Numbered from the stretch's first letter, positions 25,799-60,477 are shown. The stretch is DNA of 64,000 nt from Thermoplasmata archaeon (GCA_041559015.1 JBFFED010000002.1:1027-65026); one strand, 5' to 3'. Notes: a model not told the origin generated them from the sequence alone. Made by a program: numbers and translations.

Positions 25799-27127
25799 CT
25801 ACAACTCCTTCCTAGATGCGGTGCGTCTGAACACGGCCATGATGGCCATCAGGCCCGCCGCTGCACCGACGAGGGCGATCCCGGAGCCGAACTCAGGGAT
25901 CACCACCGAGTTCGTGGCATACTTGAGGGCGGAGTTCGTCGAGTCGTAGTAGCTTATGTGGACGCATCCGATGGAGTCCACCGCAATCGAGTTGTGCGGG
26001 CCGACCCACCCTGCGCTGTCTATCGTGTGGACCGCCCACGACCCTCCTGCGTTCGTGATGTACATGAGGTCTCCTGACGACTCGTTGGAGTAGCTTATGT
26101 GCACATTGTCATCCGCGTCCAAGGCGATGGAGGAGAACATGCCGACGTCGTTGGCAGGACCCAGGCCGTCGAGGGTGTAGTACTCCCACGAGCCACCTGC
26201 GTTGGTGGCATACTTGAGATCTTCGACAAGGACGCTGTAGTAGCTTATGTGGACATATCCATTCGTGTCCACCGCAATCGAGGTGCCCTTGCCGACATCG
26301 CCGCCAGTGTCGAGAGTCAGTTTCGTCCATGAACCTCCTGCGTTCGTGGCGTACATCAGATCCTGGGCGATGGCGCTGTAGTAGCTTATGTGGATGTTGT
26401 TGCCAGCATCCACAGCGATTGAAGTGTACTTGCCCCTGTCTACGCTAAACGATCCGTCCACTTGGCTCTGGACCACCCACGAGCCCCCGGAGTTGTTGGC
26501 GTAGTTCAGGCTCATCGTCGAGCCGTCATAGTAGCCTATGTGGACGTGGTCATTGGAGTCCACCGCGATGGAGGAGAACATCCCCACTGTCCCCGCACTG
26601 TCTATCGTGTAGTTCTGCCACGTGCCACTGGCGTTCGTGGCGTAGTTGAGGTCGCCGGCCGTGGAGTTGAGATAGCTTATGTGGACGTTGTCATTGGAGT
26701 CCAGGGCGATCGATGCGTACGTGCCCACGGCCCCGTCGTCGTTCAGCGTCTGGTATCCCCACGCGCCCCCGGCGTATGTCGCATACATCAAATACTGGTT
26801 ACCGGAGGGTACTGGGTAGTTGCAGTAGGCTATATGCGGATAGTTCTCCGAGTCCACAGCTATAGAGGTGAACCAGCCAGAGTTCGCCGAGTTGTCCACT
26901 ATCTCCGAGCCCCAGCCGGGGGGAGCCTCCGACGGCATCGCCCGTCTTGTGGACTCGTTGGAATTGAAGGCAAGGACACATAGCGCGATGACCAGTACCG
27001 CGGCCAAGGCCACGGCGGCTACCGGGACCACGGTTGGGTGTCTCCTGCCTCTTGGTGTTGTTGCGTTCGTTGCGCGTGAACCGCTGCCAGGATGAAGGCT
27101 ACGATCGATTGCATGTGGCGAAATCAA
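25799..27127 (-). CDS. Surface beta-propeller protein with PEF-CTERM sorting signal
   Basis: Seven SIAvD-x4-HIsY repeats; C-terminal IPEFGSGIALVGAAAGLMAIMAVFRR; start uncertain. Confidence 0.8.
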   Translation of the reverse strand: MISPHAIDRSLHPGSGSRATNATTPRGRRHPTVVPVAAVALAAVLVIALCVLAFNSNESTRRAMPSEAPPGWGSEIVDNSANSGWFTSIAVDSENYPHIAYCNYPVPSGNQYLMYATYAGGAWGYQTLNDDGAVGTYASIALDSNDNVHISYLNSTAGDLNYATNASGTWQNYTIDSAGTVGMFSSIAVDSNDHVHIGYYDGSTMSLNYANNSGGSWVVQSQVDGSFSVDRGKYTSIAVDAGNNIHISYYSAIAQDLMYATNAGGSWTKLTLDTGGDVGKGTSIAVDTNGYVHISYYSVLVEDLKYATNAGGSWEYYTLDGLGPANDVGMFSSIALDADDNVHISYSNESSGDLMYITNAGGSWAVHTIDSAGWVGPHNSIAVDSIGCVHISYYDSTNSALKYATNSVVIPEFGSGIALVGAAAGLMAIMAVFRRTASRKEL

Positions 27128-27267: not shown

Positions 27268-28032
27268 ATGGATGAGGAGAAGCGCGACAGGTTCGTCTCG
27301 CAGTGGCGTAAGTACTTCGGGGACGCCGAGTTGCCGATAGTAATGTTCTACACGGACGAATCGGCCCCGGTGGCGGTTTCCCGCCCCAGGTCCGGCCCGT
27401 GCGTCGTGGAGATGCTCTCTGTCGTCAGGAAGGGGAAGACACTGTGCCTCTCAGCGAAAGACCGCATGTGCGGGGGCGCGAAGAGGTACCTTGGGTTCAC
27501 GGGTCAGGCCCCCACGCGGGACTTCGAGTACTTCCTCTCTTACGGAATCCCGGGCAAGCTGGAGGGAGAGAGGTACAAGAAATCCCCCGAGCTCGTGCGG
27601 GAGACCCAGAGACACCTACAGCCGTTCAGGGCCCCGAGACCATTCATAGTCTTCAAGCGCTGGGACAAGCTGTCAGAATCGGACGCGCTCGAGGTCATCG
27701 TCTTCCTCGCGGACCTGGATACCGTGTCTGGCCTGTTCACGCTCGCGAACTTCGACGAGGCTGAGCCGAACGCGGTCATCTGCCCGTTCGGGTCCGGGTG
27801 CTCCTCGATAGTGTACCACCCGTACATGGAGCTGCAGTCCCCTCATCCGAGGTGCGTGTTGGGCCTGTTCGACATCTCAGCGAGACCCTATGTGGGCGCG
27901 GACAAGCTCTCGTTCGCGATACCGTTCCCCAAGTTCGAGAGGATGGTCGAGAACATGGATGAGAGCTTCCTCACGACCAGCTCCTGGGGATCACTCCGTC
28001 GCAGAATGAGCGGATGCGGGCGGATTGCCTAG
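27268..28032 (+). CDS. DUF169 family protein
   Basis: Cys motifs CGGAKRYLGF and PFGSGC, GLFDISAR. Confidence 0.7.
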   Translation: MDEEKRDRFVSQWRKYFGDAELPIVMFYTDESAPVAVSRPRSGPCVVEMLSVVRKGKTLCLSAKDRMCGGAKRYLGFTGQAPTRDFEYFLSYGIPGKLEGERYKKSPELVRETQRHLQPFRAPRPFIVFKRWDKLSESDALEVIVFLADLDTVSGLFTLANFDEAEPNAVICPFGSGCSSIVYHPYMELQSPHPRCVLGLFDISARPYVGADKLSFAIPFPKFERMVENMDESFLTTSSWGSLRRRMSGCGRIA

Positions 28033-28048
28033 GAAAGGAATACTAGTG

Positions 28049-28567
28049 ATGAAATCGGTGTCGGCGCCAATGTACGAAGTCAGACCCATGACCAAGGACG
28101 ACCTGGATGAATGTTCGTCCCTTTCGAAAGCAGTGAGAGTCGACTCCTGGAATTCAATTGAGAAGTCCTTCTATCCCGAGGACAAGTTCGAGGAGGAACT
28201 CCTTCTGTACTCGCCGGAATCCCTGTCCAAGTTCATCGGATCGCAAGAGCGGTTCGCGTATGTGGCGGCCGATGAGGGGGAGATATGCGGGTGCGTCATC
28301 GGAAAGGTCGACGCATCCGTCGGCATCGCTGACATCGGCTGGATATGCGTTTCATCCAGCAAACGGGGGAAAGGGATTGCGGGCAAGCTGGTCGAAGCTG
28401 TGTCTGCCAAAGCCGTCGAATCTGGGTGCCACAAGGCAATCGCATTCACGATGAGAGACCTGCCTGACGCGAACGCGATGTATCGGCGTTACGGCTTCGA
28501 GAAGGAAGGGGATTTCAGGAGGCACTGGATGAAGATCGACTTCGTCCAGTACGGAAAGCAGCTCTAA
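28049..28567 (+). CDS. GNAT acetyltransferase
   Basis: WICVSSSKRGKGIAGKL motif A; MYRRYGF. Confidence 0.85.
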   Translation: MKSVSAPMYEVRPMTKDDLDECSSLSKAVRVDSWNSIEKSFYPEDKFEEELLLYSPESLSKFIGSQERFAYVAADEGEICGCVIGKVDASVGIADIGWICVSSSKRGKGIAGKLVEAVSAKAVESGCHKAIAFTMRDLPDANAMYRRYGFEKEGDFRRHWMKIDFVQYGKQL

Positions 28568-28580
28568 TCGGCCCTATTCT

Positions 28581-28922
28581 TCAACCCTGGGAAGGCCGTG
28601 GGATGACGCATATCACTCTCAGCAGTGAGCCGCTCGAGTTGAGGAACTGGTGCATCTCGTTGGGCTCGATGAAGATGGCGTCGCCCTGGACGATGTTCTC
28701 TTCGCGGTCCTTGAGCGCGACCTTGCCGCAACCTTCGACGACGAATACTTCATGCTCCCATTCGTGGGTGTGCCTCTCCGTGTGGCCACCAGGAGAGATA
28801 TCGATCAGGCGCATGTAGAAGTGCGGTGCGTCTAAGTCCTTCGCTATCAGCTGCTTGAAGTCAATGTCCTTCGTGCCGGTAGGCGTGATTCCCTTGATGT
28901 CCTTGTGGTTGACCTTTTTCAT
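28581..28922 (-). CDS. Cupin domain protein
   Basis: HTHEWEHEVFVVEG and PNEMHQF. Confidence 0.9.
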   Translation of the reverse strand: MKKVNHKDIKGITPTGTKDIDFKQLIAKDLDAPHFYMRLIDISPGGHTERHTHEWEHEVFVVEGCGKVALKDREENIVQGDAIFIEPNEMHQFLNSSGSLLRVICVIPRPSQG

Positions 28923-29043
28923 TGCGCTATCTCCGACGCGGGCATCGCCTTCCATTCCCTATGGATGTTGTGATGAAGTGACCCTTCTCCGATGTTGTGA
29001 TTGCTGGATTTGAGGAGGCTAGAAGCCAAGATGTGCATGAGTA

Positions 29044-29117
29044 TGGACCCGGGCGGACCTTGAACTCGCTCGAGCCCATCAAACATGGAATCAGTTCAAT
29101 CAGAAAGAAAACACACC
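29044..29117 (-). repeat. Degenerate tRNA-Ala 3'-end copy + conserved cassette end (att-like copy 1)
   Basis: tggacccgggcggacc-ttgaactcgctcgagcc, then 19 nt, then tcaatcagaaagaaaacacacc. Confidence 0.7.
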
Positions 29118-29234
29118 AAGGCGTCCGCAAACCTCTTCTCCTTCTTCATGTCATGTCCGCAACGATTGCATGGAACATGATATAGACTGAACCAGTACCT
29201 TCCTCACGGGCAACAAATATGAGGTGCAACAGCA

Positions 29235-29753
29235 ATGAGCATACTCGATCCGAACATGAAACCTGCACTCCTAGTGGTAGATGTCCAGAACGCATGGCTC
29301 GACAATACTGCCGAACTGAAGGAATCGGTTGAGAAGCGTCTCAATGTCATTAATGGGGGAATCGGGTGGTTCAGGAAGAACAAGCATCCAGTTATCGTGA
29401 TCTACCACGAGGAGCCGGAGATTGGAGTGATGCCCGGGACCAACGCCTTCGAGTTCTCGCGGCTCGTGCAGATAGAAGAGCAGGATATCAGGGTCACGAA
29501 GCGCTACTCCGACGCATTCAATAGGACCAACTTGGACTCAGTTCTCCGCAGCCTGGGCCGTGACACCGTGCTGATAGTGGGCCTGAGCGCGAGTGGCTGC
29601 GCGCTCGCCACCTACTTCGGTGCCAAGAACTATGACTACAACTCCTTCCTGGTGAAGGGTGGCGTGGCGTCTCACGACCAGGGGCATGTGAGGTTCGCAG
29701 AGGAGATCTGTGAGACCATGGCGGTGGACGAGTTCGACAGAAGACTCAGATGA
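29235..29753 (+). CDS. Isochorismatase/cysteine hydrolase
   Basis: LLVVDVQN, TKRYSDAF, GLSASGC. Confidence 0.85.
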   Translation: MSILDPNMKPALLVVDVQNAWLDNTAELKESVEKRLNVINGGIGWFRKNKHPVIVIYHEEPEIGVMPGTNAFEFSRLVQIEEQDIRVTKRYSDAFNRTNLDSVLRSLGRDTVLIVGLSASGCALATYFGAKNYDYNSFLVKGGVASHDQGHVRFAEEICETMAVDEFDRRLR

Positions 29754-29906
29754 TCAACTCGAGTGACACGGGATCTGCACACAGCAGGTCGCGGAGTGAT
29801 GAGCAGGGATTCGATTTTCAAGGGAGATGACTAGCCTTCGACTTTCTTGTGATTGCTGCAATGTATGCCATAGGTCACAGGAGATTGCGCATTCATTGAA
29901 AGGGTG

Positions 29907-30269
29907 TTACAGTTTCTTCCTGAAGACGCCCCAAGATACACCGTAAAGGTGCTTCTTGTCCTTCAGCGGAATGAATCCTGACCATTGAGCGATCATGCCT
30001 CTCTCAGCTGCCCTCCGCTTGAGAAATCCCGGAGTCACCTCATTGATGTGATCCAGTTTCTCTCTCAGCATTCCTTTTCCCTTTGGAGGAAATCCTTCTC
30101 CCGCTATGCAGCCGTCGCACCATCCCTCCAGCCAGAGGATCCTGTCTTTTCCCCTTATCTCAGCAAAGATCTCGCTTGGTACGGGAATGTCCGGTACGAG
30201 TTCGGCTACAAGGGCCAGGATATCGTCGCGTGTGGGTCGATTAGAGTCTTCCATTTCACGTCTTGTCAT
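29907..30269 (-). CDS. Hypothetical protein
   Basis: 120 aa ORF inside cassette A; no recognised motif. Confidence 0.55.
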   Translation of the reverse strand: MTRREMEDSNRPTRDDILALVAELVPDIPVPSEIFAEIRGKDRILWLEGWCDGCIAGEGFPPKGKGMLREKLDHINEVTPGFLKRRAAERGMIAQWSGFIPLKDKKHLYGVSWGVFRKKL

Positions 30270-30385
30270 GTTCAGTGACTATATCAAGATTGTCTGCTTG
30301 TTGAGCCGAGTTTTGACTTTGAACACTGGCCATCTTCAGTTTCGCGATTCAAGCACCGAGCCAGGCCTCTTCTCCAGTCTCGTCT

Positions 30386-30459
30386 GTGGACCGGGCGAGC
30401 ATTGAACTCGCTCGAGCCAGACAATCATAAAACCGTCTCAATTAAAAAGAAAATGCACC
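30386..30459 (-). repeat. tRNA-Ala 3'-end copy + conserved cassette end (att-like copy 2)
   Basis: 30386-30411 matches tRNA 36740-36765 at 24/26 nt; followed by the 17-mer extension, 19 nt, and tcaattaaaaagaaaatgcacc. Confidence 0.85.
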
Positions 30460-30869
30460 GGGGCATCCCCAAACCCATTGATCTTCTCATCTTACCTGTC
30501 GAAGGAGGCTGCATTGAGCTGGACTTGAACTTGGACATCTGGCTCGGTTCCAATCAGGGGGGGTTTGGTACGCGTATACTAGCCTTTTCCTCGCCTTTCC
30601 TCGCGAAATCAGAGGTTCAATTTGCGCGACGTGCAAACTCGGTTAACCGGCTCATTTCTATCGTCGCAAATTGGCACCGAGGCAGACCGTTTCTCGTGTT
30701 CGTCTTCCGGTCGGGGTGTTGGCCTCGAGTCGCATTTGAGTCGTCTGAGAATATGTCTGGTGGATCATCTGCACATGCACCGGTATGGGTCCGAGTATGA
30801 TGTGGCGTCACTAGAATCCCGCGAAGATTGGGCAGCTTCGCGAATCGACCGCAACAAGCGTCTCATTGT

Positions 30870-31730
30870 TCAGATGTAGAGTCCGCCGTTGATGTCAACT
30901 ACCTGCCCGGTGATATAGCCCGCCTCTGGAGACACTAGATACGTAACCGCAGATGCGATTTCTTCAGGTCTCCCCAGTCTGCCCATGGGTATCTGTGCCA
31001 GAATCTTCTGGATGATATTTGGCGGAACAGACTTCAACATATCGGTCCCGATGAATCCTGGGGCCACGGCATTTACGGTGACGCCTTTGTCCGCGAATTC
31101 CTTGGCAAGTGTCTGAGTCAATCCTATCATTCCTGCCTTTGAGGCTGCGTAGTTAGCCTGGCCACGATTGCCCATCCGACCAATCACAGAAGATATGTTC
31201 ACTATCCGGCCGTATTGCCGCTCAAGCATTCCATCAATGACAGCTTTGGTGCAATTGAAAGTTCCCGTGAGGTTGACGGAGATTACGTCGTCCCACATCT
31301 CTGAAGTCATCTTCACGAACGATTTGTCTTTGACTATTCCGGCGTTGTTTACCAGGATATCGATCTTGCCGAACTCAGCCACCGCCTTGTCCCGCATCTT
31401 GTTCACTTCGTCCATCTTTCCGACGTTGGCCTGGCATAAGATAGCACGTCTCCCCATCGACTCTATCTTTTCTCTGACTTCCTTTCCTTGTTCGACAGTA
31501 TCCATGATGTCAATCATGTTGATCAGTTCGTCAAGATCATCCATTCTATCTGTCTTATTTATGAAGTCGATGACGTCCGCAGCCTGGTCCTTGCGGCTCT
31601 GATAGTTCACGGCGACATCTGCTCCTTCTCCTGCGAGCTTGATGGCAATCGCCTGACCGATGCCTCTCGAGCCGCCTGTGACCAGCGCAACCTTTCCGTC
31701 TAGAGCCCCTGTTCTCTTAATGCCTTTCAC
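30870..31730 (-). CDS. phaB: Acetoacetyl-CoA reductase (SDR) with internal insertion
   Basis: TGGSRGIG, NNAG, GQANYAASKAG; in operon with phaC. Confidence 0.75.
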   Translation of the reverse strand: MKGIKRTGALDGKVALVTGGSRGIGQAIAIKLAGEGADVAVNYQSRKDQAADVIDFINKTDRMDDLDELINMIDIMDTVEQGKEVREKIESMGRRAILCQANVGKMDEVNKMRDKAVAEFGKIDILVNNAGIVKDKSFVKMTSEMWDDVISVNLTGTFNCTKAVIDGMLERQYGRIVNISSVIGRMGNRGQANYAASKAGMIGLTQTLAKEFADKGVTVNAVAPGFIGTDMLKSVPPNIIQKILAQIPMGRLGRPEEIASAVTYLVSPEAGYITGQVVDINGGLYI

Positions 31731-31749
31731 CCCTTGTCCTCGCGTGAGC

Positions 31750-32535
31750 CTAGACCACCAGTCCACCATCGACCAGCAATACGCACCCGTTCACGTACTT
31801 CGCCTCGTCCGACGCCAGATATAGGTTGGCATAGGCGACATCTATCGGATCGCCTAGCATGTTCAGAGGAGTCTTCTCCGCCATTCGGTCAAGGATCTTC
31901 TGAGGCACTGATGCAGTCATTGGGGTCTTTATGAATCCGGGAGCGATTGCATTGACTCTGATCCCCTTCCTTCCCAGTTCCTTGGACAGAGTCTTGGTCA
32001 TGCCAATCAAGCCGGCTTTGGCGGCCGAATAGTTGACCTGGCCGACATTGCCATAGACGCCTGAAACGGAGGACACATTGACAATCGAACCGCTTCCTCT
32101 CTGTAGCATGTGATCGGCGACTGCTTGAATGCAGTTGAACGCGCCCGTGAGGTCAACACGAATCACTTCGTCCCATTGCTCTTCTGTCATCTTCTGCAGC
32201 AGAGCGTCCCTGATTATGCCTGCGTTGTTGATCAGGATGTCAATCCTCCCAAATCTCTGGAGCGTCGCATCGACTGCTTTCCTCACTTCCTCTCTCTTGG
32301 TTATGTCTGCAGTAGCGCACAAGGTGTTCTTGATTTCCGTCTCCTTGGCGAATCCCATGTCACGATAGACCTTCTCTACATCTCCGGTGAAGATATCGAA
32401 GATGGCGACCTTCGCCCCCTCATTCAAGAAGAGTTTCGCTGTTTCCTTTCCGATTCCACTTCCGCCTCCAGTAATTACTGCAACCTTGTTCTCTAATCTC
32501 ATCTCGGGTTCCTCCTTCCCTCTGCTCTCATTCAT
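31750..32535 (-). CDS. Second PhaB/FabG-like SDR reductase
   Basis: TGGGSGIG, NNAG, GQVNYSAAKAG. Confidence 0.8.
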   Translation of the reverse strand: MNESRGKEEPEMRLENKVAVITGGGSGIGKETAKLFLNEGAKVAIFDIFTGDVEKVYRDMGFAKETEIKNTLCATADITKREEVRKAVDATLQRFGRIDILINNAGIIRDALLQKMTEEQWDEVIRVDLTGAFNCIQAVADHMLQRGSGSIVNVSSVSGVYGNVGQVNYSAAKAGLIGMTKTLSKELGRKGIRVNAIAPGFIKTPMTASVPQKILDRMAEKTPLNMLGDPIDVAYANLYLASDEAKYVNGCVLLVDGGLVV

Positions 32536-32551
32536 CTCTTTCGTTCCCGTC

Positions 32552-33637
32552 TCAGCTGCTCTGTTCGCCAGATCGCGCCCTCAGCCAGGAAGAGATCTTC
32601 GGGCAGACGTCCCTTTGTGATTTGCCGCCGACGAACATTCCAATATGTCCCGTCGGAAAGACCACGACTTCTTTATCTGTGCTCGCAACTGCATCGTTGA
32701 GCGGCTTGCTGGCAGCGATGGGAACTAGGTGGTCGTACTCCCCCATCACGTTCAGCAGAGGCATTGTGATGTTCTTGAGGTCGACCCTCTTCCCGTCCAG
32801 CATCATTTCGTTCTTTATCAGCAGGTTCTTCTGATAGCAGTCCTTGATGAACTGTCGATACATTTCCCCTGCCTGGTTAGGACTGTCAAAGATCCATTTT
32901 TCCATCCGCAGGAAGTTCTTCACGGCTTCCTCATTCTTGCGCCCGCTGTCTTCGTCATCCCCGTTGCTCTCAATCTTCTCAAAGAATATGACGTACTTGT
33001 CTATCAAGACTCTGAAGGGGTCGGTTAGTAGGAAGCCCGTGTTGAGTAGATTCCCAGGTACCATTCCGTATGCATCCACTATCCTGTCGGCATCTAGGCT
33101 CTTTGCCCAGACGTGGAGGAGCCCTTCATCGGTGTCGAAATCGACGGGTGTCACCATTGTTGCGAGGTTCTGGATCTTTTCCGGATGCAGCGATGAATAC
33201 ATCACCGAGAAGGTACCACCCTGGCAAACGCCGAACAGGGACACTTTCTCAGCTCCGGACAACTCCCTTATCTTCTCGACGGCGTTGTCGATATACCCGT
33301 TCACATAGTCATCGATGGTGAGATACCTGTCTATTCCTGACGGATATCCCCAGTCAATGATGTATACATCGAGCCCATCATCGAGCAGTTTCTTGACGAC
33401 ACTCTTGTCGGGCTGGAGATCAAGTATGTAGTGTCTGTTGACAAGAGCATAGACGATGAGCACGGGTACTGGATAAGGCTTCTTCACTACTGGGATGTAG
33501 TGAAGCAGCCTCATATCATCCTGTGTGTAGACGACCTCTGAAGGGGTCATCCCGACCGAGATCTCTGGTGCCTTGAGGAATAGGTCGAGCATCCTCATCG
33601 CCTTCCTGTTGTTCTCTATCAGTTCCGCGAATTCCAT
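32552..33637 (-). CDS. phaC: Class III PHA synthase catalytic subunit
   Basis: YALVNRHYILDLQPDKS, lipase-like box GVCQGG, EYDHLVP, PTGHIG, EKWIFDSP. Confidence 0.93.
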   Translation of the reverse strand: MEFAELIENNRKAMRMLDLFLKAPEISVGMTPSEVVYTQDDMRLLHYIPVVKKPYPVPVLIVYALVNRHYILDLQPDKSVVKKLLDDGLDVYIIDWGYPSGIDRYLTIDDYVNGYIDNAVEKIRELSGAEKVSLFGVCQGGTFSVMYSSLHPEKIQNLATMVTPVDFDTDEGLLHVWAKSLDADRIVDAYGMVPGNLLNTGFLLTDPFRVLIDKYVIFFEKIESNGDDEDSGRKNEEAVKNFLRMEKWIFDSPNQAGEMYRQFIKDCYQKNLLIKNEMMLDGKRVDLKNITMPLLNVMGEYDHLVPIAASKPLNDAVASTDKEVVVFPTGHIGMFVGGKSQRDVCPKISSWLRARSGEQSS

Positions 33638-33675
33638 AGTTGTCACTATCCGAAACGACACTCAGGCAGCGTCCG

Positions 33676-34224
33676 TCACTTCCTCGTTGCGCTCTTTCCC
33701 TGATCTCGAACCAACTCTTTCACTTGCTTCTTGAGCAGGTAGACCTCTTTGCTGAGGTCGTCCATCTCCGTCCGCGTGGGAAGATTGGCGGGTCTGAGGA
33801 AATTCTCCTCGATTAGGACCCTCGAGGACTTCTGAAAATCCATCGAATTGGATGTCAGTCTTGCCAGATCCGAGGCAAAGAAGCTAGATTTCAGAAACTT
33901 CTTGAATGTCTCACTGTATGTCTCCATCCAGAGGTCGTAGTAGCCCTTGTAGGAGGAAGGCGAGACGCCCTCTGCGATCCGCTTCTCAACCTCCTCCTGG
34001 GTTTTCTGGCTGGCTTCCATGAAGGCACTCTGGTAGTTCGCGATGGACTGCGCCCATGCAGCATGCATGTTGATTGTGGCCTCGAAGTTCTTCCTCAGCC
34101 TATCCACGCCTTCGCGAGATGGGCCCATGATGGGCATGTCTATGATTCTACCGTAGGTAGCCTCATAGGCCTTCAGCCAGTGCTCGAAGAAGTCATGGGA
34201 TGCTTGTAGATCCGAGCTCTCCAT
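33676..34224 (-). CDS. phaE: Class III PHA synthase subunit PhaE
   Basis: Directly upstream of phaC; YDLWMETY; C-terminal LPTRTEMDDLSKEVYLLKKQV coiled coil. Confidence 0.8.
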   Translation of the reverse strand: MESSDLQASHDFFEHWLKAYEATYGRIIDMPIMGPSREGVDRLRKNFEATINMHAAWAQSIANYQSAFMEASQKTQEEVEKRIAEGVSPSSYKGYYDLWMETYSETFKKFLKSSFFASDLARLTSNSMDFQKSSRVLIEENFLRPANLPTRTEMDDLSKEVYLLKKQVKELVRDQGKSATRK

Positions 34225-34226
34225 GA

Positions 34227-35369
34227 TCAAGTCGCCCTCGTCTGACCGAACTTCGCGTCCATCCACATCTTGGTTGCATTCGCATAGGTGTCCGCCTGAG
34301 CCCGTGCTGCCTTCTTGAGTGGGTCTATCAGTATCTTCATGGGCTCTACCGCGGGCATGAGTTCAAAGAAGTCTTTGTACGCCTTCTCATATGTATCGAA
34401 CCACTGCCCGTAGAACTCCCTGTAGGATTCCGCCTCGGTCGCGTTGGTGAGTAGATCCTTCATCTTCTCTGTAGTCTTCTCCAACACCGTCAACCAGGAA
34501 TTGTACAGCTCCGTACTGTTCTGCATTCCCTGGAGCATTTCATCGACCATCTCCTTCGACGGCTTCGTGATGTCGGTGGAGAACATCTTGGCGTATGTCT
34601 CTTTGTATGTATTCATCCACTGGTCGTAGAACTCTTTGTACTTCTCCGGACCTGCGTCGCCCTTTGACAGCTCGAAGAGCTTCTCTGAGAGCTCGAAAGT
34701 CAGCTTCTCCCAGGGGGTGTACATGTCCTTGTAGGACTCTCTCCACATCTTCGCCGCTTCTGCGAGGTTCGTGAGATACATGTTCGGCATGCCCGTGTAC
34801 GCCTCGAAGACCTCCTTCGTGTTCTTCGATGTCATCATGCCGAGAAACTCATCGAACATCTTCTCATAGGACTTGATCCACATTTCGTAGGAGTTCTTGT
34901 AGTCCTCAGGACTCACGCCACCCAAGAGCATCTTCTGAGTCCTCCTGGAGTTCTCCTCGAGTTCGGCGCTCCACGCCTTCATCAAATCCGTTGACTCCTG
35001 TGCACTCACGACGAGCATGTCCAGTGTCCTTCTGTCCGTCATTGCCTTCAGCATAGTTGCCTTCTGCATAGGATAGAGTCTGTCAAGTGTGTCCTGTTGT
35101 GTCTTGACCAGTTCCTCGTAGAACTCTCGGTATTTCTCTGGCGATGTCTCCCCTGAGAGCTGCACAGCCTTGTCAAAGAGCTTGCCTGTAGACTCGATCC
35201 AGGGGTTGTACAGGTCTGTGTAGGATTCCTGCCAGACTTTCGACATTGCGCTGTAGCTTTCGGTCCACATCTTGAAGGGGTTCTTCCGCTCCTCGGTCGA
35301 TCCCGTTCGGTTCGCCTTGCTCGTTTCTCCCTTCCTGCTCTTAACTGTCTCTGCTTTGTTCTTAGTCAT
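34227..35369 (-). CDS. PhaE-like helical repeat protein
   Basis: Four copies of (P/A)E-x-Y-x-(E/N)-(F/S)-Y-x2-(W/L)-x3-(Y/Q); first gene of the operon. Confidence 0.7.
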   Translation of the reverse strand: MTKNKAETVKSRKGETSKANRTGSTEERKNPFKMWTESYSAMSKVWQESYTDLYNPWIESTGKLFDKAVQLSGETSPEKYREFYEELVKTQQDTLDRLYPMQKATMLKAMTDRRTLDMLVVSAQESTDLMKAWSAELEENSRRTQKMLLGGVSPEDYKNSYEMWIKSYEKMFDEFLGMMTSKNTKEVFEAYTGMPNMYLTNLAEAAKMWRESYKDMYTPWEKLTFELSEKLFELSKGDAGPEKYKEFYDQWMNTYKETYAKMFSTDITKPSKEMVDEMLQGMQNSTELYNSWLTVLEKTTEKMKDLLTNATEAESYREFYGQWFDTYEKAYKDFFELMPAVEPMKILIDPLKKAARAQADTYANATKMWMDAKFGQTRAT

Positions 35370-35791
35370 ACTGGTTCGCCTCCACAAAACTCACAGACGA
35401 TTATTCAAACCGGGCGAATCCATGTAGCAAAAAAAGCTACGAAGTTCCTAACGGCGATCTAAAACGCATCCTGTTGAATTTCCGCGATTTCCAATTCAAG
35501 CTATAGTGTTGCCGCTTATAGTCTTTGGCTTCGTACCGAGCAGTCGTCGCAGAAATACGCTGGCAAGGTTTCCCCGGAACATGGGCAATCTCAGACCCAG
35601 GCAGCGAGATGTACTGATATGAGCTTGTGCTCCGGTTCAATGGCACGCCCTCAGAGATTCCATTGAGGCACAATCACTCGTCAAGCACTAGAATAGTCTG
35701 TCTCTGTCCATTTCGTCTTCTCACGATGAGATGGGTGTGAATCCGGATGCATAGCCGACTCTGGATAGGAAATCCCTGGTGAGCGGGCACG

Positions 35792-36589
35792 TCAGCGAAA
35801 CTTCTCAACGAGGGAAAGAAGTGCCGTCGCGAATTCTCTGGGCTGGTCAACATAGCCGACGTGCCCGCTCGGAAACATGTGCAAATCGGTTCTCAGTTGT
35901 GTCGCGAGCCATTTGGATGCGCAGAACAAGTGCATAGCCGTCTCTTCACCTGCCGCTATGAGGATGGGGACCTTGGATCCCCTAAGCGCTTCTGCGTTGG
36001 GCTTATAGGAGATGATCACCGGCATCTCCACAGAGAAAATGACATCCCCATTGTCGAAAGCGCGTCGCATCGTGCTCGGGTCCAGACCATTGATTGCCTC
36101 GTCCTCTTTCATCTCTGTGAACACTCGCAGTGCGTTGCGGGGGCCTCCCTTCGCTACCTTGGCTTTCCAGAAGTCTGCCAGGTCATGAGCTTGATAGAGA
36201 AGCGGCATAAGCGGCGGTTCGTGCGCGATTGCCCCCCGAACTGACAGCGGGTGGCGAACGATGAGCTCGAGCAAGATCATCGCTCCGAAACTGTTGCCGA
36301 AGACGATGGCTGGACTTAGGCGCAAAGTGGACAGCAATTCCGCTGCATCATCCGCCTGCTCCGTAACCGAAGTCGACGTCCAGCCTTCTGGGCGAGGGCT
36401 TCGAGAATTTGCGCGGCGATCATACGTAATGACCGTGAACTGCTCGGCGAGGAGCTCCGCGAGCGGCTCGAACCATCCTGCGTCTCCCGTGAGGCCCATG
36501 ATCAGTAGAAGGGGCGGTCCGAAACCTCGTATCTCGTAGTAGATGTGCGTCCCATTGACCTCGGCGAGCCCATGCTTCATCGTCGTCAT
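35792..36589 (-). CDS. Alpha/beta hydrolase
   Basis: GNSFG nucleophile elbow, YDRRANSRS, PSGHVGY. Confidence 0.85.
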   Translation of the reverse strand: MTTMKHGLAEVNGTHIYYEIRGFGPPLLLIMGLTGDAGWFEPLAELLAEQFTVITYDRRANSRSPRPEGWTSTSVTEQADDAAELLSTLRLSPAIVFGNSFGAMILLELIVRHPLSVRGAIAHEPPLMPLLYQAHDLADFWKAKVAKGGPRNALRVFTEMKEDEAINGLDPSTMRRAFDNGDVIFSVEMPVIISYKPNAEALRGSKVPILIAAGEETAMHLFCASKWLATQLRTDLHMFPSGHVGYVDQPREFATALLSLVEKFR

Positions 36590-36737
36590 CCCTCTGGCTG
36601 ATTCGCTTCCGTTCACTTAATGCATTCTCCAGTGTGTTGAGCCGTGGTTGAACCGGAGACACTGGCTGTCTCTCAATCCGGCGATTGTCACACGTCCGAA
36701 TCTCTTCTAACGCCCCTATGGCTTCTTCCGAGACTAA

Positions 36738-36812
36738 TGGTGGACCGGGCGAGATTTGAACTCGCGACCTCTCGCATGCCAAGCGAGCGATCTGCCGCTG
36801 ATCTACCGGCCC
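36738..36812 (-). tRNA. tRNA-Ala(GGC), CCA encoded
   Basis: Cloverleaf GGGCCGG/CCGGTCC with G3-U70; anticodon arm CTCGC-TTGGCAT-GCGAG; T arm GCGAG-TTCAAAT-CTCGC. Confidence 0.97.
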
Positions 36813-37020
36813 ATTCAGGATGCGATGTATATGCTCGGCCTAGTTAAACCTTGCCGATGCGATCGCCTGAAGAGCCCTTCTCTGGCGATAAGAATTCACG
36901 GTCCGTCCGAGTTGAGTGCAAACTCTGGAAAATGATGTCCTAATGGGTTTCCCCAGTCCCGCGGAAACCCGCGGGACGGGATGCGTGCGCCTGAGAGCCC
37001 CTCACGGCTGCCCGCAGTGA

Positions 37021-37287
37021 TTACTCGTCACTGTACGGACAGTCAGGGTTAGGGCAGATGCCGCCGCCACAGGATCCGTCCTGCAACTGCTGCTGCACCT
37101 GGTCCTGGTCCTTCTCGCCGTCCAGGTCGCCGGTCTGGTTTCCGTTCGAATCAGCCGTTGCAGCGGTCACGGCAAACGCCCCGCTGACCACCAAGGCGGC
37201 GCAGAACGCAACTGCAATCCAGGCTCTGCTAGCTCTCCTCGCCCCCGATATTCTCTTCACCGGGTCGCTCTCTTGTTCCTTGCTCAT
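37021..37287 (-). CDS. Small secreted Q/D-rich protein with Cys-rich C-terminus
   Basis: Signal-like AWIAVAFCAALVVSGAFAVTAATA; ends QDGSCGGGICPNPDCPYSDE. Confidence 0.6.
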   Translation of the reverse strand: MSKEQESDPVKRISGARRASRAWIAVAFCAALVVSGAFAVTAATADSNGNQTGDLDGEKDQDQVQQQLQDGSCGGGICPNPDCPYSDE

Positions 37288-37495
37288 GTCCTCACTTCCG
37301 GGGGCGGGGCCGTCGAGGCGTCTTCATAAGGTTCCTCAGGTCGCAGCCCGTCCGGCTAGGCTAATCCCGCCCGTTAGACGCAGGATTGGGCAATCAGTGG
37401 TAATTGCCTTACGGGACCATTATCAGACGGTGGCACAACCGAGGGATGGCATGGGGCGGATGGAGTGTCAAGAGCCAGGACCATCATGAGCCCGT

Positions 37496-44160: not shown

Positions 44161-45996
44161 CTAGGCCAGGTCCAGCTCCTTCATCTTCTCCGGTGTGGGC
44201 TCCCCGTCATGGGTCCACCCGCGGGACTTCATGTAGTCGTCGAGCATCGTGTTCATCTCCTCGACGGATATCTTCGAGCCCTTGGAGACGCCCTCGGGTA
44301 TCGGGTCCTCGAGCACCCTCGGGGGCAACAGCCAGTCCTTCCTCGTCACACCTTCCCGGTGGTTGAAAGCGCCCTTCATGTTGTGGACCCTCTCGCCTAT
44401 CTTCAGGAGCTCCTCCTCGGTGAACTTCAGGCCGGTTATGGCCTCTAACACCTCAGGCAGCTTGGCGATCAGGTAGAATCCCCTCGAGAACTTGCACAGC
44501 CCGACTGAGTCGTAGACGCACATGAAGTTCTCCATCGTGGCGACCATCTCGCCCTTGCCTGCGGTCGAGAACCTGTCGATGCCCTCCCACTTCCAGAACT
44601 TGCCCACGAGCTCGGGCGCGTAGAACCCCGCCCTCAGGTGGCATGCCCCTCTCGTGGAGGTCATGTACGCGAGCCCGTGCCCTTTCATGCCCCTGACATC
44701 GTACGCAGGAGGCTCCATGCCCTTCGTGTGGATGGCGTACCTCTCGGAGCCCTTGCCTATCCTCTGCGCGGCCACCTTGACGCCGTCCGCGAGCCCCTCG
44801 CCGAAGCCCTTCCTGTTGCCGATCATCTCGACCATCTTCGGCACTGCGTCAGAGGCGTTGCTCCAGGAGAGGTCGAGCCCCACCTCATCCTTTGTGATTA
44901 TCCCGCGCTGGTACAGCTCCATCGCGAAGCCTATCGTGACCCCGCATGAGATGGTGTCCAGGCCTAGGAGGTCGCACAGCTCGTTCGCCTTCGCGACGCT
45001 CTCGACATCCGAGTTGCCGCAGGTCCCCCCGAGGGAGTACAGCGTTTCGTACTCGATGCCGTCTATCGCCACGCCCGCGAACTTGCCCGACTCGACCTCG
45101 AACAGCTTCCCGCACGGCTTGGTGCACGCGAAGCAGGCCTTGTTCTTGGAGACGTACTTCGGAGCCCAGTAGTACGGGTCTATCTTCTCGCGCTCGTTGA
45201 ACACGCTCTCCTGCCAGTTCCGGGTCGGGAAGACTCCCCTGTCCTTGTTTATCCAGCCCAGGAACTCGCCGGTGCCGTACTTCGTGTCCTCGACGAACGA
45301 CGGCGCCGCCTCGTACACCTTCTGGTACTGGAGCGCCAGCTGGAGGAGCTTGTCCGGGTCCGCGGGGACCAGGTCCTTCGTGCCCCTGATGACTATGGCC
45401 TTGAGCATCTTCGAGCCCATGACCGCTCCGAGGCCTCCCCTGCCGGACTGCCGGTCCTCGCAGTCGATGCCAGCCATCCGGGAGAGCTTCTCGCCCGCGA
45501 CGCCTATGCACGCGACCTTGACGTCCCAGCCGTGGCGCTTCTTGAGTATCTCCGGGACCTCCCTGGTGTCCTTACCCCAGAGGTCTCTGGCCTCCAGGAT
45601 CTCGACCTTCTCGTCCTCTATCCACAGATAGACCGGCTCGTCCGACTTGCCGACTATCTCGAGCGCGTCGTAGCCCGCGTGCCTGAGCTCAGGCCCGATC
45701 GATCCGCCCATGATGCTCTCCGCGAGGCCGCCGGTCGCGGGCGACTTCGCCGCGAAGGCGACCTTGCCACCAGTGCCCACAGGGAACCCGTCGAACGCGC
45801 CGCCCGCAATCGCGAACACGTTGTCCGCGCCGAAAGTGTCCGCTCCAGGGGGCATGTCGTGGTACACTATCTGTACCGCGAACCCCTGTCCTCCGAGGTA
45901 CTTGCGGGCGTACTTCTCGTCGAAGGTCCGCTCGCTCGACTTCCCCTCGCTCAGGTCGACCTTGAGTATCTTGCCAGTGTATCCCTTCATGGTCAT
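44161..45996 (-). CDS. aor: Aldehyde:ferredoxin oxidoreductase (W-pterin family)
   Basis: GKILKVDLS, KSPATG, GRGGLGAVMGSKMLKAI, CFACTKPC, GLDTIS, RGACH. Confidence 0.92.
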   Translation of the reverse strand: MTMKGYTGKILKVDLSEGKSSERTFDEKYARKYLGGQGFAVQIVYHDMPPGADTFGADNVFAIAGGAFDGFPVGTGGKVAFAAKSPATGGLAESIMGGSIGPELRHAGYDALEIVGKSDEPVYLWIEDEKVEILEARDLWGKDTREVPEILKKRHGWDVKVACIGVAGEKLSRMAGIDCEDRQSGRGGLGAVMGSKMLKAIVIRGTKDLVPADPDKLLQLALQYQKVYEAAPSFVEDTKYGTGEFLGWINKDRGVFPTRNWQESVFNEREKIDPYYWAPKYVSKNKACFACTKPCGKLFEVESGKFAGVAIDGIEYETLYSLGGTCGNSDVESVAKANELCDLLGLDTISCGVTIGFAMELYQRGIITKDEVGLDLSWSNASDAVPKMVEMIGNRKGFGEGLADGVKVAAQRIGKGSERYAIHTKGMEPPAYDVRGMKGHGLAYMTSTRGACHLRAGFYAPELVGKFWKWEGIDRFSTAGKGEMVATMENFMCVYDSVGLCKFSRGFYLIAKLPEVLEAITGLKFTEEELLKIGERVHNMKGAFNHREGVTRKDWLLPPRVLEDPIPEGVSKGSKISVEEMNTMLDDYMKSRGWTHDGEPTPEKMKELDLA

Positions 45997-51187: not shown

Positions 51188-52042
51188 CTAGAGGTCGACC
51201 TTCACCTGGTGCACTTCGAGGCCCAGCTTCTCCTTCGGCAGCCCGAAGGCGAGCCCCATGAGCTGGGACAGGTGCAGGACCGGTATCTTGTACTCCTTCA
51301 GCTGCGCCTGGCCCGCGTCGTACTGCAGGTGGCAGAACGGGCAGCAGTCGACTATGACATCGACGCCCGCGTCCGTCATGTTCTTCAGGTTCTCGGCGGT
51401 CATCTTGAGCGCGACATCGGGGGTCCTGGCCCTGACGCCCCCACCGGCGCCGCAGCACATGCCCTTGTCCTTGTATGTGACGCTGGTCATGCCCGCCGCT
51501 TCGACTATGTCGTCGAACACGTGCGGCCTCTCGGAGTCGTCGATCTTCTTGATGTTCGAGGGCTTCAGGAAGTGGCACCCGTAGTGCACGGCCGCCCTGA
51601 GGTTCTTGCCGCCCTTGGCCTTGGCCCGTATGGCCTCGACCCCGACGTCCCTGTATAGCAGCTCGACGAAGTGCCTCACCTGCATCGTCCCGTTGTACTC
51701 CATTCCGGAGGCGTCCTTGAGTATCTTGTTGATCTTCTTCCTGAGCTCGGGGTCGTGGTTGAGCTTGTGCGCGACCTCGAACAGAGTGTCGAAGCACCCG
51801 TTGCAGATCGTTAGCACGCCGTCCACGCCCATCTTCTCCGCGATCGCGAGGTTCCTAGCGGCCACGGCCATCCAGTAGGTCTGGTCGAAGGACCTCATTA
51901 CCCCTGGCGCGGGGCAGCAGCTGGCGCCCTGCATGTCTATCAGGTCGACGTTCAGTGACTTGAAGACCTCCCTCGAGGCGCTCTCTATGCCCGGGTACCT
52001 GAGGGGCATGATGCATCCGAGGAAGAAAGCGTACTTAGCCAT
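51188..52042 (-). CDS. hdrB: Heterodisulfide reductase subunit B
   Basis: FFLGCIMP, SCCPAPG, CNGCF, HYGCH, CCGAGGG, CCPFCHLQYD. Confidence 0.93.
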   Translation of the reverse strand: MAKYAFFLGCIMPLRYPGIESASREVFKSLNVDLIDMQGASCCPAPGVMRSFDQTYWMAVAARNLAIAEKMGVDGVLTICNGCFDTLFEVAHKLNHDPELRKKINKILKDASGMEYNGTMQVRHFVELLYRDVGVEAIRAKAKGGKNLRAAVHYGCHFLKPSNIKKIDDSERPHVFDDIVEAAGMTSVTYKDKGMCCGAGGGVRARTPDVALKMTAENLKNMTDAGVDVIVDCCPFCHLQYDAGQAQLKEYKIPVLHLSQLMGLAFGLPKEKLGLEVHQVKVDL

Positions 52043-52566
52043 CAGGCCTTCCCCCCTGACGCGACGAGTTTGTCGAACCCGCACAGGACCGCGATCTTCT
52101 TGACCTCCTCCTGCGCCTTCGGGTCGGAGAACACCGTCGGCGGCGTCCCCTGGAGCCCGAGCTTCGACCTGAGCGCCTTGTCCTCCTCCCTGAGCGTGAC
52201 GAGGTGCCCCGTCTTGGATATCAGCTCGGCGACCTTCCTGTGGGGCTCGGCCATATGGCCCTTCCTGACCGCCATGTTCCTGAGGGCCATGACGACATCG
52301 ACGATCTCGACACCTCTGGGGCACCTCTCGTAGCATGTGAAGCACGTCGTGCACAGCCAGAGGTCCTCGGACGGCAGCACGTCCTCCTCGAACCCCAGCT
52401 GGGCGCGCCTGACGACCTTCCTGATTCGGAACGCCGTCTGCCGGCCTGACGGGCAGCTGCCCGTGCATGTGCCGCACTGGAAGCAGAGGTTGACGGTCTT
52501 GCCTCCGCCCTCGATAACCTTTCTCGTGAACTCTGGGTTTGGTTCCTTCGCTTCAGCCAAGAACAC
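52042..52566 (-). CDS. hdrC: Heterodisulfide reductase subunit C
   Basis: CFQCGTCTGSCP and CTTCFTCYERCPRG. Confidence 0.93.
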   Translation of the reverse strand: MFLAEAKEPNPEFTRKVIEGGGKTVNLCFQCGTCTGSCPSGRQTAFRIRKVVRRAQLGFEEDVLPSEDLWLCTTCFTCYERCPRGVEIVDVVMALRNMAVRKGHMAEPHRKVAELISKTGHLVTLREEDKALRSKLGLQGTPPTVFSDPKAQEEVKKIAVLCGFDKLVASGGKA

Positions 52567-59975: not shown

Positions 59976-60464
59976 TCAGGCCGAAACCTGCCTGAACCCC
60001 CGGGTGTAAAGAAGGAACGAATCCACAACAAGGGCAGCCCCAAGCACTGCGATAAGAGTCAACCCCAAGTCGAACGCGCTCAGGTCGACGAGCTGGTTGA
60101 CGATCCCTAGGAATATCAAGTAGGAGCCTGCTATGACCTCCACAGCGATGTACAGGGCGGGCAGTACCGAGGGAGAGGGAGGGGATCGAATAATCCATTC
60201 ACGACTGCTGCGGAACGATGCAATCGTGAGAACCACTCCGAAGATGATAGCCACGGACGCGTACAGTATCGCGTCTTCGATTAGTCCAGACCCCAGAGCA
60301 ATCATGCCGGCCCCGAGGATGAGTAGCAGGAAAGTGGCAATTGCAGGATTGTCCACGACGTCAAACAATCGAGGCTTCCTTATAACGATTCTGGTATTGC
60401 CCCTTGATGGGCGACTACTTACTGACAATGGAATTCGCGAACACTCTGGCTCGAGCGAGTTCAA
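59976..60464 (-). CDS. Hypothetical 4-TM protein (accessory; true start probably downstream)
   Basis: Four hydrophobic segments; the track start lies inside the att-like motif. Confidence 0.5.
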   Translation of the reverse strand: MNSLEPECSRIPLSVSSRPSRGNTRIVIRKPRLFDVVDNPAIATFLLLILGAGMIALGSGLIEDAILYASVAIIFGVVLTIASFRSSREWIIRSPPSPSVLPALYIAVEVIAGSYLIFLGIVNQLVDLSAFDLGLTLIAVLGAALVVDSFLLYTRGFRQVSA

Positions 60465-60477
60465 TGCTCGCCTGGTC
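60445..60477 (+). repeat. att-like copy 3, inverted relative to copies 1-2, over a stop codon
   Basis: Reverse complement gaccaggcgagcattgaactcgctcgagccaga matches 30389-30421 at 32/33 nt. Confidence 0.85.

Follow-up and report, generated by a model that had tools for sequence, protein, structure and literature searches.

A probable Methanoperedens-type polyhydroxyalkanoate module carried as a horizontally acquired, tRNA-bounded cassette in a Thermoplasmata archaeon

How did a Thermoplasmata archaeon come to carry what appears to be an operon for polyhydroxyalkanoate (PHA) storage, and what would the operon do there? Haloarchaea and Methanoperedens are the archaea in which PHA storage has been documented; PHA genes are also known from ammonia oxidisers and, recently, from Archaeoglobaceae. 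The locus studied here lies in a stretch of 64,000 nucleotides (the window, G000:C2:1027-65026) of a metagenome-assembled genome (MAG) of 1.78 Mb in 83 contigs, 88% complete and with 3% contamination; in the labels used below, G numbers denote species genomes, L numbers loci or metagenome contigs, and C numbers contigs of G000. An original prediction, made from the sequence of the window, had described a class III PHA operon as mobile cargo in a probable Thermoplasmatota host. Open reading frame (ORF) calling and profile searches of the window showed that six minus-strand genes fill 30870-36616, encoding an alpha/beta hydrolase, a 380-residue helical repeat protein, a short PhaE, a class III PhaC and two short-chain dehydrogenase/reductase (SDR) reductases, SDR1 and SDR2 (Table 1). 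The predicted same-strand run of repeat protein, phaE, phaC, SDR and phaB was recovered with all five ORFs on the minus strand; the borders proposed for it, 30870-35369, hold for these five genes and are too narrow for the cassette, since the hydrolase gene lies beyond them. With a probability of about 0.8, we consider the locus to be a PHA module of the Methanoperedens type that functions, or did so until recently, and that was acquired as the cargo of an island.

The PhaC protein scored 456.2 bits on TIGR01836, the class III PhaC model (cut-off 365.3), and 455.6 bits in a six-frame search of the whole genome. Together with the PhaE match to PF09712 (86.6 bits, threshold 25.7) and the SDR models of the reductases, this bears out the predicted class III PhaEC operon with reductases. 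The motifs GVCQGG (residues 144-149), EYDH (308-311) and TGHIG (337-341), which had been read as the conserved Cys, Asp and His motifs, are indeed present with an intact triad Cys146/Asp310/His339 (residue numbers count along the 369-residue ORF). When aligned to the solved catalytic domain of the Cupriavidus PhaC (5HZ2), they were found to land on the lipase-box Cys (FCVGG), the Asp of EDH and the His of GH; the matching Cupriavidus residues we take to be C319/D480/H508. The length of 361-369 residues fits a class III subunit of ~40 kDa, and the gene of the PhaE partner is located 38 nt upstream on the same strand. By these characters PhaC is the catalytic subunit of a class III PHA synthase, with a predicted polymerising activity.

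The search for PhaC homologues covered about 186,000 species genomes. The best match, from a Thermoplasmata MAG, showed 85% identity, and was followed by eleven loci of Ca. Methanoperedens or Methanoperedenaceae (66-71%) and then by anaerobic bacteria (49-55%). In ten of the eleven Methanoperedens loci, the repeat-protein gene, present in one to three tandem copies, is followed by genes for a short PhaE, for PhaC and for SDR1; an SDR2 gene follows in nine of these ten, in eight of the nine ~1.2 kb past SDR1, and in Ca. M. nitroreducens the gap between SDR1 and SDR2 is occupied by a bacterial-type thiolase of 392 residues. Compared with their Methanoperedens counterparts, the repeat protein of the window showed 40-45% identity, PhaE 39-50%, PhaC 65-71%, SDR1 58-62% (gene after phaC) and SDR2 63-70% (gene after the thiolase). 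The two clusters are alike in gene order, orientation, five homologous proteins, sister PhaCs and an anaerobic host, and a repeat protein made of PhaE modules is confined to Thermoplasmata and Methanoperedens. They differ in that the window has no thiolase between the SDRs (the Methanoperedens MAG L017 likewise lacks an operon thiolase), one repeat-protein gene instead of one to three, and an added upstream hydrolase. Moreover, the window genes have a GC content of 52% and lie on a tRNA-bounded island, whereas the Methanoperedens PHA operons, at 41-46% GC, match their own genomic background. The Methanoperedens operon has been described previously (PMC8561730), and experiments have confirmed that Methanoperedenaceae accumulate PHA via phaCE, a process viewed as an auxiliary electron sink in these archaea (review PMC13046784). 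This demonstrated storage is the strongest basis for the function that we infer for the window operon.

In a maximum-likelihood tree of PhaC (LG+C20, 37 rows), accompanied by a quick tree with more rows and built without Nitrososphaeria and Archaeoglobaceae sequences, the five PhaCs of the Thermoplasmata family that includes G000 formed one clade (100/99), and the Methanoperedens PhaCs another (99/93), placed as its sister (99/99). Together they branched among bacterial class III enzymes. Two haloarchaeal sequences (Haloferax and Haloprofundus) and other PhaCs of the class Thermoplasmata (G041 and G054) fell outside that pair. The haloarchaea and ammonia oxidisers with which the original prediction had compared the operon were the wrong groups: the close relative is Methanoperedens, and the PhaC of Haloferax mediterranei, 48% identical to that of the window, lies outside the clade. 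The H. mediterranei system (pHM300/pHME322) is similar in having a two-subunit class III synthase, a short PhaE of ~182 residues (equal in length to that of the window, 21% identical, E 2e-7) and a granule-protein gene directly upstream of phaE. Its PhaC differs in its length of 492 residues, with a C-terminal extension, as compared to 361 in the window. Neither the long C-terminal extension nor the grouping with Halobacteria that define the haloarchaeal PhaEC subtype was found for the window PhaC. In contrast to the haloarchaeal phaRP system, the window contains no AbrB-type PhaR, the repeat protein is unrelated to PhaP, and the reductases are located inside the operon. Bacterial class III PhaEC, represented by MAGs of Desulfobacterota, Nitrospirota and Bacillota and by Rhizobium pRL10, is alike in PhaC length, domains and catalytic motifs (49-55% identical). 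However, the models of bacterial-type PhaE, TIGR01834 and PF09712, have 324 and 311 positions, of which the 182-residue PhaE of the window has only the C-terminal half, and, unlike in bacteria, a separate protein in the window holds four copies of a PhaE module.

The PF09712 match of PhaE covers only profile positions 142-310. The stop codon of the repeat-protein gene overlaps the PhaE start by 4 nt, and PhaE is translationally coupled to the repeat protein. A motif xPExY[KR]xFYxxW..TYE occurs four times in the repeat protein and once in PhaE, and in BLAST comparisons PhaE aligned to three separate stretches of the repeat protein with E values from 1e-14 to 5e-11. Because of these four motif copies and three matching stretches, the repeat protein looks like a tandem array of PhaE-core modules. 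Only 258 relatives were found among 5.8 billion proteins searched, the named ones all from Thermoplasmata or Methanoperedens and mostly annotated as 'hypothetical'. An AlphaFold (AF2) model made with 41 homologues had a disordered, Lys-rich N-terminus followed by helices only. The helical nature of the repeat protein, the position of its gene and its descent from PhaE make it a candidate lineage-specific, phasin-like granule protein. A preprint on Borgs and Methanoperedens lists 'a phasin' among highly expressed Methanoperedens genes (10.1101/2023.08.01.549754), possibly a member of the repeat-protein family. On the Methanoperedens side, the genomes of L011-L021 have between one and three paralogues of the PhaE-module protein in tandem upstream of phaE, and some Methanoperedens MAGs hold two PHA loci (L011/L020 and L012/L014).

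The YxxxK motif is intact in both reductases, the ORFs of which share 20 nt. They match FabG as well as acetoacetyl-CoA reductase models, and both pass generic FabG models. On the acetoacetyl-CoA reductase model TIGR01829 (cut-off 302.1), SDR2 scored 295.9, just short of the cut-off, and SDR1 239.1; SDR2 reached 307.7 on TIGR01830, and on NF042966 the scores of 211 (SDR2) and 204 (SDR1) were below the cut-off of 436. From their place in the operon, both would act as reductases in PHA precursor supply. The best solved relatives of SDR1 are 4nbu (2e-78) and the (3R)-hydroxyacyl-CoA dehydrogenase 2et6, and SDR1 is likely to be an acetoacetyl-CoA/(R)-3-hydroxyacyl-CoA oxidoreductase. It probably prefers NADH, because an Asp closes strand beta2 (VAIFDIF), as the usual SDR rule has it. 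SDR2 resembles NADPH-type FabG/PhaB enzymes (3sj7, 3ezl and 4n5l) and is probably NADPH-dependent. Two reductases with different cofactors would suit a role as electron sink. The match of SDR2 to solved FabG/PhaB splits at residues 70/97, which corresponds to an insert of ~30 residues after strand beta2. This insert is acidic (…FINKTDRMDDLDELINMIDIMDTVEQGKEV…) and absent from the solved FabG/PhaB structures; judged from alignment lengths, the Methanoperedens SDR2 orthologues keep it. As for thiolases, G000 encodes a bacterial-type enzyme on contig C38, 50% identical to the thiolase of the Methanoperedens operon, and additionally two archaeal-type thiolases.

The hydrolase has a GNSFG box, and its solved relatives are Est1 esterases and a zearalenone lactonase (about 1e-17). 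Close copies (84-90% identity) were found in 6 of 45 genomes of the family, including four of the five PhaC carriers; the two others, in G003 and G033, are located at contig ends. No such gene occurs in the Methanoperedens PHA loci. The presence of this serine hydrolase in the cassette favours an alternative explanation, in which the cluster would serve mainly PHA degradation or turnover, the hydrolase and the 'PhaC' both working as hydrolases and the SDRs oxidising 3-hydroxyacyl units. A homologous Borg PHA cluster has been read as degradative (preprint 10.1101/2023.08.01.549754), the solved relatives of SDR1 include an NAD-dependent (3R)-hydroxyacyl-CoA dehydrogenase, and PhaC also matches PF06850 (polyhydroxybutyrate depolymerase C-terminus, 37.8 bits) and, weakly, TIGR01849. 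However, the PhaC nucleophile is a Cys in a synthase-like GxCxGG box and not a Ser, the protein scores 456 bits on the class III synthase model compared with 53 on the depolymerase model, it is accompanied by PhaE and a phasin-like protein, and the orthologous Methanoperedens genes are tied to observed PHA accumulation. Degradation as the main role is therefore very unlikely, while synthesis and mobilisation are not mutually exclusive. Within a synthesis module, the hydrolase is a cassette member that may be a PHA or oligomer esterase.

The same six genes were found elsewhere as a unit of 5.8 kb. Nucleotide homology spans 30835-36653 of the window, with identical sharp ends in the other copies: in G001, a genome of the same genus assembled as a single contig of 1.98 Mb (86.8% nucleotide identity), in G028 (genus g2; 85.5%), in G031 (genus g4; 87.4%) and in the metagenome contigs L125-L128 (91-92%). 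The genes flanking all seven of these copies differ from those of the window. Of the 45 species genomes of the family, 5 contain PhaC, and of the 19 in the genus, 2 do; the carriers belong to three of the four genera. It was found in 10 of 401 evenly sampled Thermoplasmatota species genomes and is thus rare in the phylum, although not unique to the window. Class III PhaC above cut-off was also observed in Thermoplasmatota families with larger genomes (2.8-4.5 Mb) outside the class (G094, G101, G128, G139, G170, G191 and G212), some of which hold two copies.

The PhaC of the window pairs with that of G031, from another genus (93% identity), and not with that of its congener G001 (87%), whereas PurF follows taxonomy (86% to G001, 79% to G031). 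An approximately unbiased (AU) test rejected a clade of the same-genus PhaCs of G000 and G001 (p 2e-5); the group was set by taxonomy, yet the test was run after the quick tree had been seen. The composition of the cassette is also distinct, with 52.4% GC and 61-76% GC at third codon positions (GC3), compared with 60-63% GC and 81-90% GC3 in neighbouring host genes, and its GC content stays at 51-52% in every carrier. Along the window this is visible as a GC trough of 0.51-0.54 against ~0.60, across roughly 28-37 kb. Five independent lines of evidence, the recurrence as a unit, the patchy distribution, the incongruent tree, the composition and the anatomy of the island, indicate that the cassette was acquired horizontally. 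An operon ancestral to the family and lost many times, with the tRNA position and the low GC being incidental, would agree with a single clade of five family PhaCs that is sister to Methanoperedens rather than nested in it, and with carriers in three of four genera; moreover, incomplete MAGs could hide copies, since the hydrolase genes of G003 and G033 sit at the ends of contigs. Against common descent in place, no flanking genes are common to any two carriers, the copies have identical sharp tRNA-derived ends and sit at tRNA-Ala, at tRNA-Leu or beside an integrase, and the tRNA-Ala site of the examined congeners holds other cargo. The conflict of the PhaC tree with taxonomy and a cassette GC3 15-25 points under that of the host genes argue likewise, and we regard ancestral inheritance as highly improbable.

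The host is assigned to the Thermoplasmata because the flank of the cassette is syntenic with congeners and the closest named PhaC is that of 'Thermoplasmata archaeon isolate MAG55', which agrees with the host originally predicted. Of the 18 other species genomes in the genus, 17 contain the purF-tRNA-Ala segment that lies right of the cassette, with nucleotide identities of 78-87%. With at least nine attachment (att)-like units per genome and a tRNA that could mislead an assembler, and with a MAG of 83 contigs and 3% contamination, an assembly or binning artefact has to be considered, in which a PHA segment of another organism, for instance Methanoperedens or a bacterium, was joined at repeated tRNA-like sequences. 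This explanation is barely credible. The single-contig genome G001 carries the cassette internally, and four metagenome contigs and three other MAGs of the family carry it in Thermoplasmata-like contexts. The identity of PhaC is only ~70% with any copy from Methanoperedens, and does not exceed 55% with bacterial ones. In addition, both sides of the island region are linked in G003, where a single contig contains homologues of the genes at 5.5-11.3 kb of the window and, 13 kb away, the tRNA-Ala/purF locus, and several genomes share the island architecture. These data argue against a contig that is chimeric at the tRNA, which the original prediction had named as a danger to its own reading.

The horizontally acquired cassette is bordered on its proximal side by an intact tRNA-Ala(GGC) gene; a scan of 27-38 kb with Rfam gave nothing besides this tRNA. 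In the seven congener loci examined (G001, G003, G007, G010, G015, G016 and G018), homology covers 36740-36857 and ends exactly at the 3' end of tRNA-Ala, past which each of these genomes holds different genes. On the distal side, 30386-30411 is a direct repeat of the tRNA-Ala 3' end (24/26 matches), and the island between them (island A, 30412-36737) measures 6.3 kb. An older neighbour, island B, is closed by a second tRNA-Ala-type unit with a degenerate copy of the 3' end at 29044-29069 (19/26); like the copy at 30386-30411, it continues into a conserved extension of ~75 nt. Units consisting of a tRNA-Ala fragment and an extension delimit one to three stacked islands of ~2.4-9.5 kb in G001, G003, G010 and G015, and in G010 a tyrosine integrase abuts tRNA-Ala. 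The conserved unit of ~95 nt has the consensus GTGGACCGGGCGAGCATTGAACTCGCTCGAGCCAGACAATCATAAAATCGGTTCAATTAAAAAGAAAATGCACCGGGGCGTCCCCAAACCC and starts with a mimic of the tRNA-Ala 3' end. At least nine copies were found in G000: besides the two in Table 1, one lies in the window at 60445-60480, and others at C6:163-298, C28:12397/16026/17620/22001 and C31:22039-22125. The four units on C28 form an array with a spacing of 1.6-4.4 kb, and the unit on C31 is located 760 nt from a tRNA-Leu(CAG). By its appearance, the unit would be the attachment end common to a family of small, stacked cassettes. Two candidates for further border features were rejected. A split SSV-type integrase at the island borders was not found, since the ORF 30402-30800 that reads through the distal unit had no family match and tblastn with the two integrases of the family gave nothing on this contig; the nearest tRNA-Ala-type unit in G001 is not an equivalent border, as it lies 3.2 kb off and is inverted relative to the cassette. 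No IntI-type integrase was seen, the idea of an integron having been weighed only for the stacked cassettes with conserved ends and without a dedicated test.

Inside these borders the cassette has ends of a second type, derived from tRNA-Leu(CAG). The proximal inner unit (~55 nt) aligned as the conserved upstream cassette end in the window, G001, G028, L125, L127 and L128. In L128 (8490-8734), the cassette starts 135 nt past an intact tRNA-Leu(CAG); the 3' half of this tRNA recurs 111 nt past it as a degenerate 48-nt duplicate, which directly abuts the cassette. Such a pair of sites, with hardly any sequence between them, is a textbook attL/attR-like footprint. In G028 the fragment at the cassette end matches the tRNA-Leu 3' end at 21 of 21 positions, and 77 nt separate the cassette from a tyrosine integrase, 36% identical to that of G010 (E 3e-59). 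Of the islands behind tRNA-Leu(CAG) in L125, the cassette is the second, and it has tRNA-Leu-type units on both sides. Because tRNA-Leu(CAG) 3'-end fragments are found at the cassette ends across carriers, the PHA module was most likely once an element targeting tRNA-Leu, which would now lie inside tRNA-Ala-type borders. Recombination between arrays, relaxed specificity of an integrase, or capture by another element are possible routes.

Table 1. Coordinates of the features in the window (64,000 nt), as counted from its first nucleotide.
Feature	Position	Strand	Remarks
alpha/beta-fold serine hydrolase	35792..36616	-	probable start 36589; PF00561/PF12697
repeat protein	34227..35369	-	ORF to 35387; probable start 35369; 380 aa; PF09712 29.5 bits
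PhaE, short form	33676..34224	-	ORF to 34266; probable start 34224; 182 aa; PF09712
PhaC	32552..33637	-	ORF open to 33661; probable start 33637; 361 aa; TIGR01836
SDR reductase 1 (FabG-like)	31750..32535	-	PF13561/PF00106; NF004198, 303 bits
SDR reductase 2 (PhaB/FabG type)	30870..31769	-	TIGR01829 and TIGR01830 scores
tRNA-Ala(GGC), intact	36738..36812	-	ARAGORN; Rfam RF00005, 66.3 bits; proximal border of island stack
proximal inner att-like unit	36625..36679	-	GATTG-N-GCCAG-N-TTCAA..C.GCTC..., from tRNA-Leu(CAG) 3' end
distal inner att-like unit, tRNA-Leu type	30503..30557	-	pattern scan; same orientation as proximal unit
distal outer att-like unit	30386..30487	-	26-nt tRNA-Ala 3'-end copy + ~75-nt conserved extension; repeat families D6, D4
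island B, older neighbour	29044..30385	-	isochorismatase-family gene 29235-29753; orphan ORF 29907-30269; GC 0.519
second tRNA-Ala-type unit	29044..29145		closes island B
AOR	44161..45996		near the operon
CCG-domain HdrB-like protein	51188..52477		near the operon

The AOR and Hdr-type genes that had been noted near the operon were both located in its vicinity, and McrA was absent in a search of genome G000. A small ORF at 35437-35673, in the gap between the hydrolase and the repeat protein, is considered neither a gene nor a PhaR-like regulator, because it is open in only two of four cassette copies. Other observations were made in the surroundings of the islands. Between tRNA-Ala and purF, ~650 bp (36860-37495) with an 88-residue ORF (37021-37287) are present where congeners have only ~30 bp. 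Just beyond island B, 28025-29043 contains a GNAT acetyltransferase and a cupin gene at 54.6% GC, possibly the eroded remains of an older island that has no recognisable end unit. Adjoining the low-GC region on the left, a membrane-anchored protein of 442 residues (25799-27127) is built of repeats of ~47-50 residues, with DNA periods of 141/150/291 nt and a weak match to BNR_4. Farther away, 11822-15373 encodes a fusion of 1183 residues, in which N-terminal and mobile domains of the phosphoenolpyruvate (PEP)/pyruvate dikinase type are joined to DUF7065 and DUF7064.

We propose that the six genes make up a self-contained, horizontally acquired module for synthesis and packaging of a short-chain PHA. 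Acetoacetyl-CoA would come from a thiolase encoded elsewhere in the genome, and the cassette SDRs would reduce it to (R)-3-hydroxybutyryl-CoA, one probably with NADH and the other with NADPH. A PhaE-PhaC heteromer would polymerise this product through Cys146/Asp310/His339, the helical PhaE-module repeat protein would coat the granule in a phasin-like manner, and the upstream serine hydrolase may serve polymer mobilisation. The polymer would be a carbon store and electron sink in an anaerobe without methanogenesis. The six genes would move together as the 5.8-kb unit between att-like repeats derived from tRNA 3' ends. Polymer synthesis, like the enzyme activities, the cofactors, the roles of phasin and hydrolase, the physiology and the direction and mechanism of transfer, is here predicted from sequence data and comparison.

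Several observations weigh against this proposal. Profile searches and locus comparison gave no thiolase gene (phaA) in the cassette, just as originally predicted, where the Methanoperedens operon has one, and the thiolase gene on C38 is cut by the contig end. PhaE scored 69.9 on TIGR01834, below the NCBIfam PhaE cut-off of 154.95. The repeat protein falls in no known phasin family, its only match being the weak one to PF09712 (29.5 bits); it shows no significant similarity to Haloferax PhaP (BLASTP E 0.075), and its model, only moderately confident (predicted local distance difference test score, pLDDT, 62.6), gave nothing below E 0.1 in a Foldseek search of the PDB. The hydrolase resembles generic esterases and lactonases and not known PHA depolymerases; on models of intracellular PHA depolymerases (NF050089 and TIGR01849) it stayed below cut-off, with 23.8 against 300 on NF050089. 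In the PhaC tree, the Thermoplasmata clade stands beside that of Methanoperedens as its sister instead of branching from within it. As regards movement, a repeat search gave no clean att pair around the integrase and cassette of G028, and tRNA-Leu-type units are found nested within tRNA-Ala-type borders. No integrase or remnant was found on contig C2 by tblastn with two integrases of the family, the only integrase fragments in G000 being on C52 and C10. Because an integrase is absent, the window copy is either fixed or mobile only with an integrase acting in trans. The 'mobile cargo' of the original prediction therefore stands with regard to horizontal acquisition at a tRNA island and not with regard to an integrase in the window copy; 'mobile' holds for the cassette as a lineage, and the window copy is decayed or trans-mobilised.

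Islands that target tRNA genes and are stacked by accretion, as well as integrase-less cis-mobilisable elements (CIMEs), are known from Firmicutes. The window islands are alike in their tRNA 3'-end sites, direct-repeat borders, tandem stacking, the lack of an integrase in some, and related tyrosine integrases in relatives. Unlike CIMEs, they are archaeal and very small (1.3-9.5 kb), have a distal unit of ~95 nt and two nested types of unit, and their mobilisation is predicted. A bolder extension, which we put forward tentatively and consider rather unlikely, is that the PHA operon is live cargo of an undescribed archaeal cassette system. In such a system, integrase-less modules ending in the ~95-nt tRNA-mimic unit would be shuffled between tRNA-Ala, tRNA-Leu and secondary sites by tyrosine integrases acting in trans, and entire metabolic operons would have been exchanged between Thermoplasmata genera and, on one occasion or more, with Methanoperedens.

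The acquired PHA module is not new in kind, because public MAG annotation already labels these Thermoplasmata proteins class III PhaC and the operon type is known from Methanoperedens. In the literature searched, no paper describing PHA synthesis genes in Thermoplasmata or Thermoplasmatota was found, and a screen of cultured thermophilic genera retrieved no PhaC from Thermoplasmata (2025 preprint, 10.1101/2025.05.06.652502). The noteworthy aspects are the PhaE-module repeat protein and the fact that an entire storage pathway is carried by a small cassette with tRNA borders, a clear example of how a complete pathway for a storage polymer travels as a single small unit from one archaeal genus or phylum to another. 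The locus points to an uncharacterised, PhaE-derived candidate granule protein common only to Thermoplasmata and Methanoperedens, and it offers compact candidate parts from anaerobes for enzyme studies, a PhaC of 361 and a PhaE of 182 residues. If the cassette is active, some Thermoplasmata of sediment and groundwater could bank carbon and reducing equivalents, which would change how fermentative or acetogenic metabolism in Thermoplasmata should be modelled.

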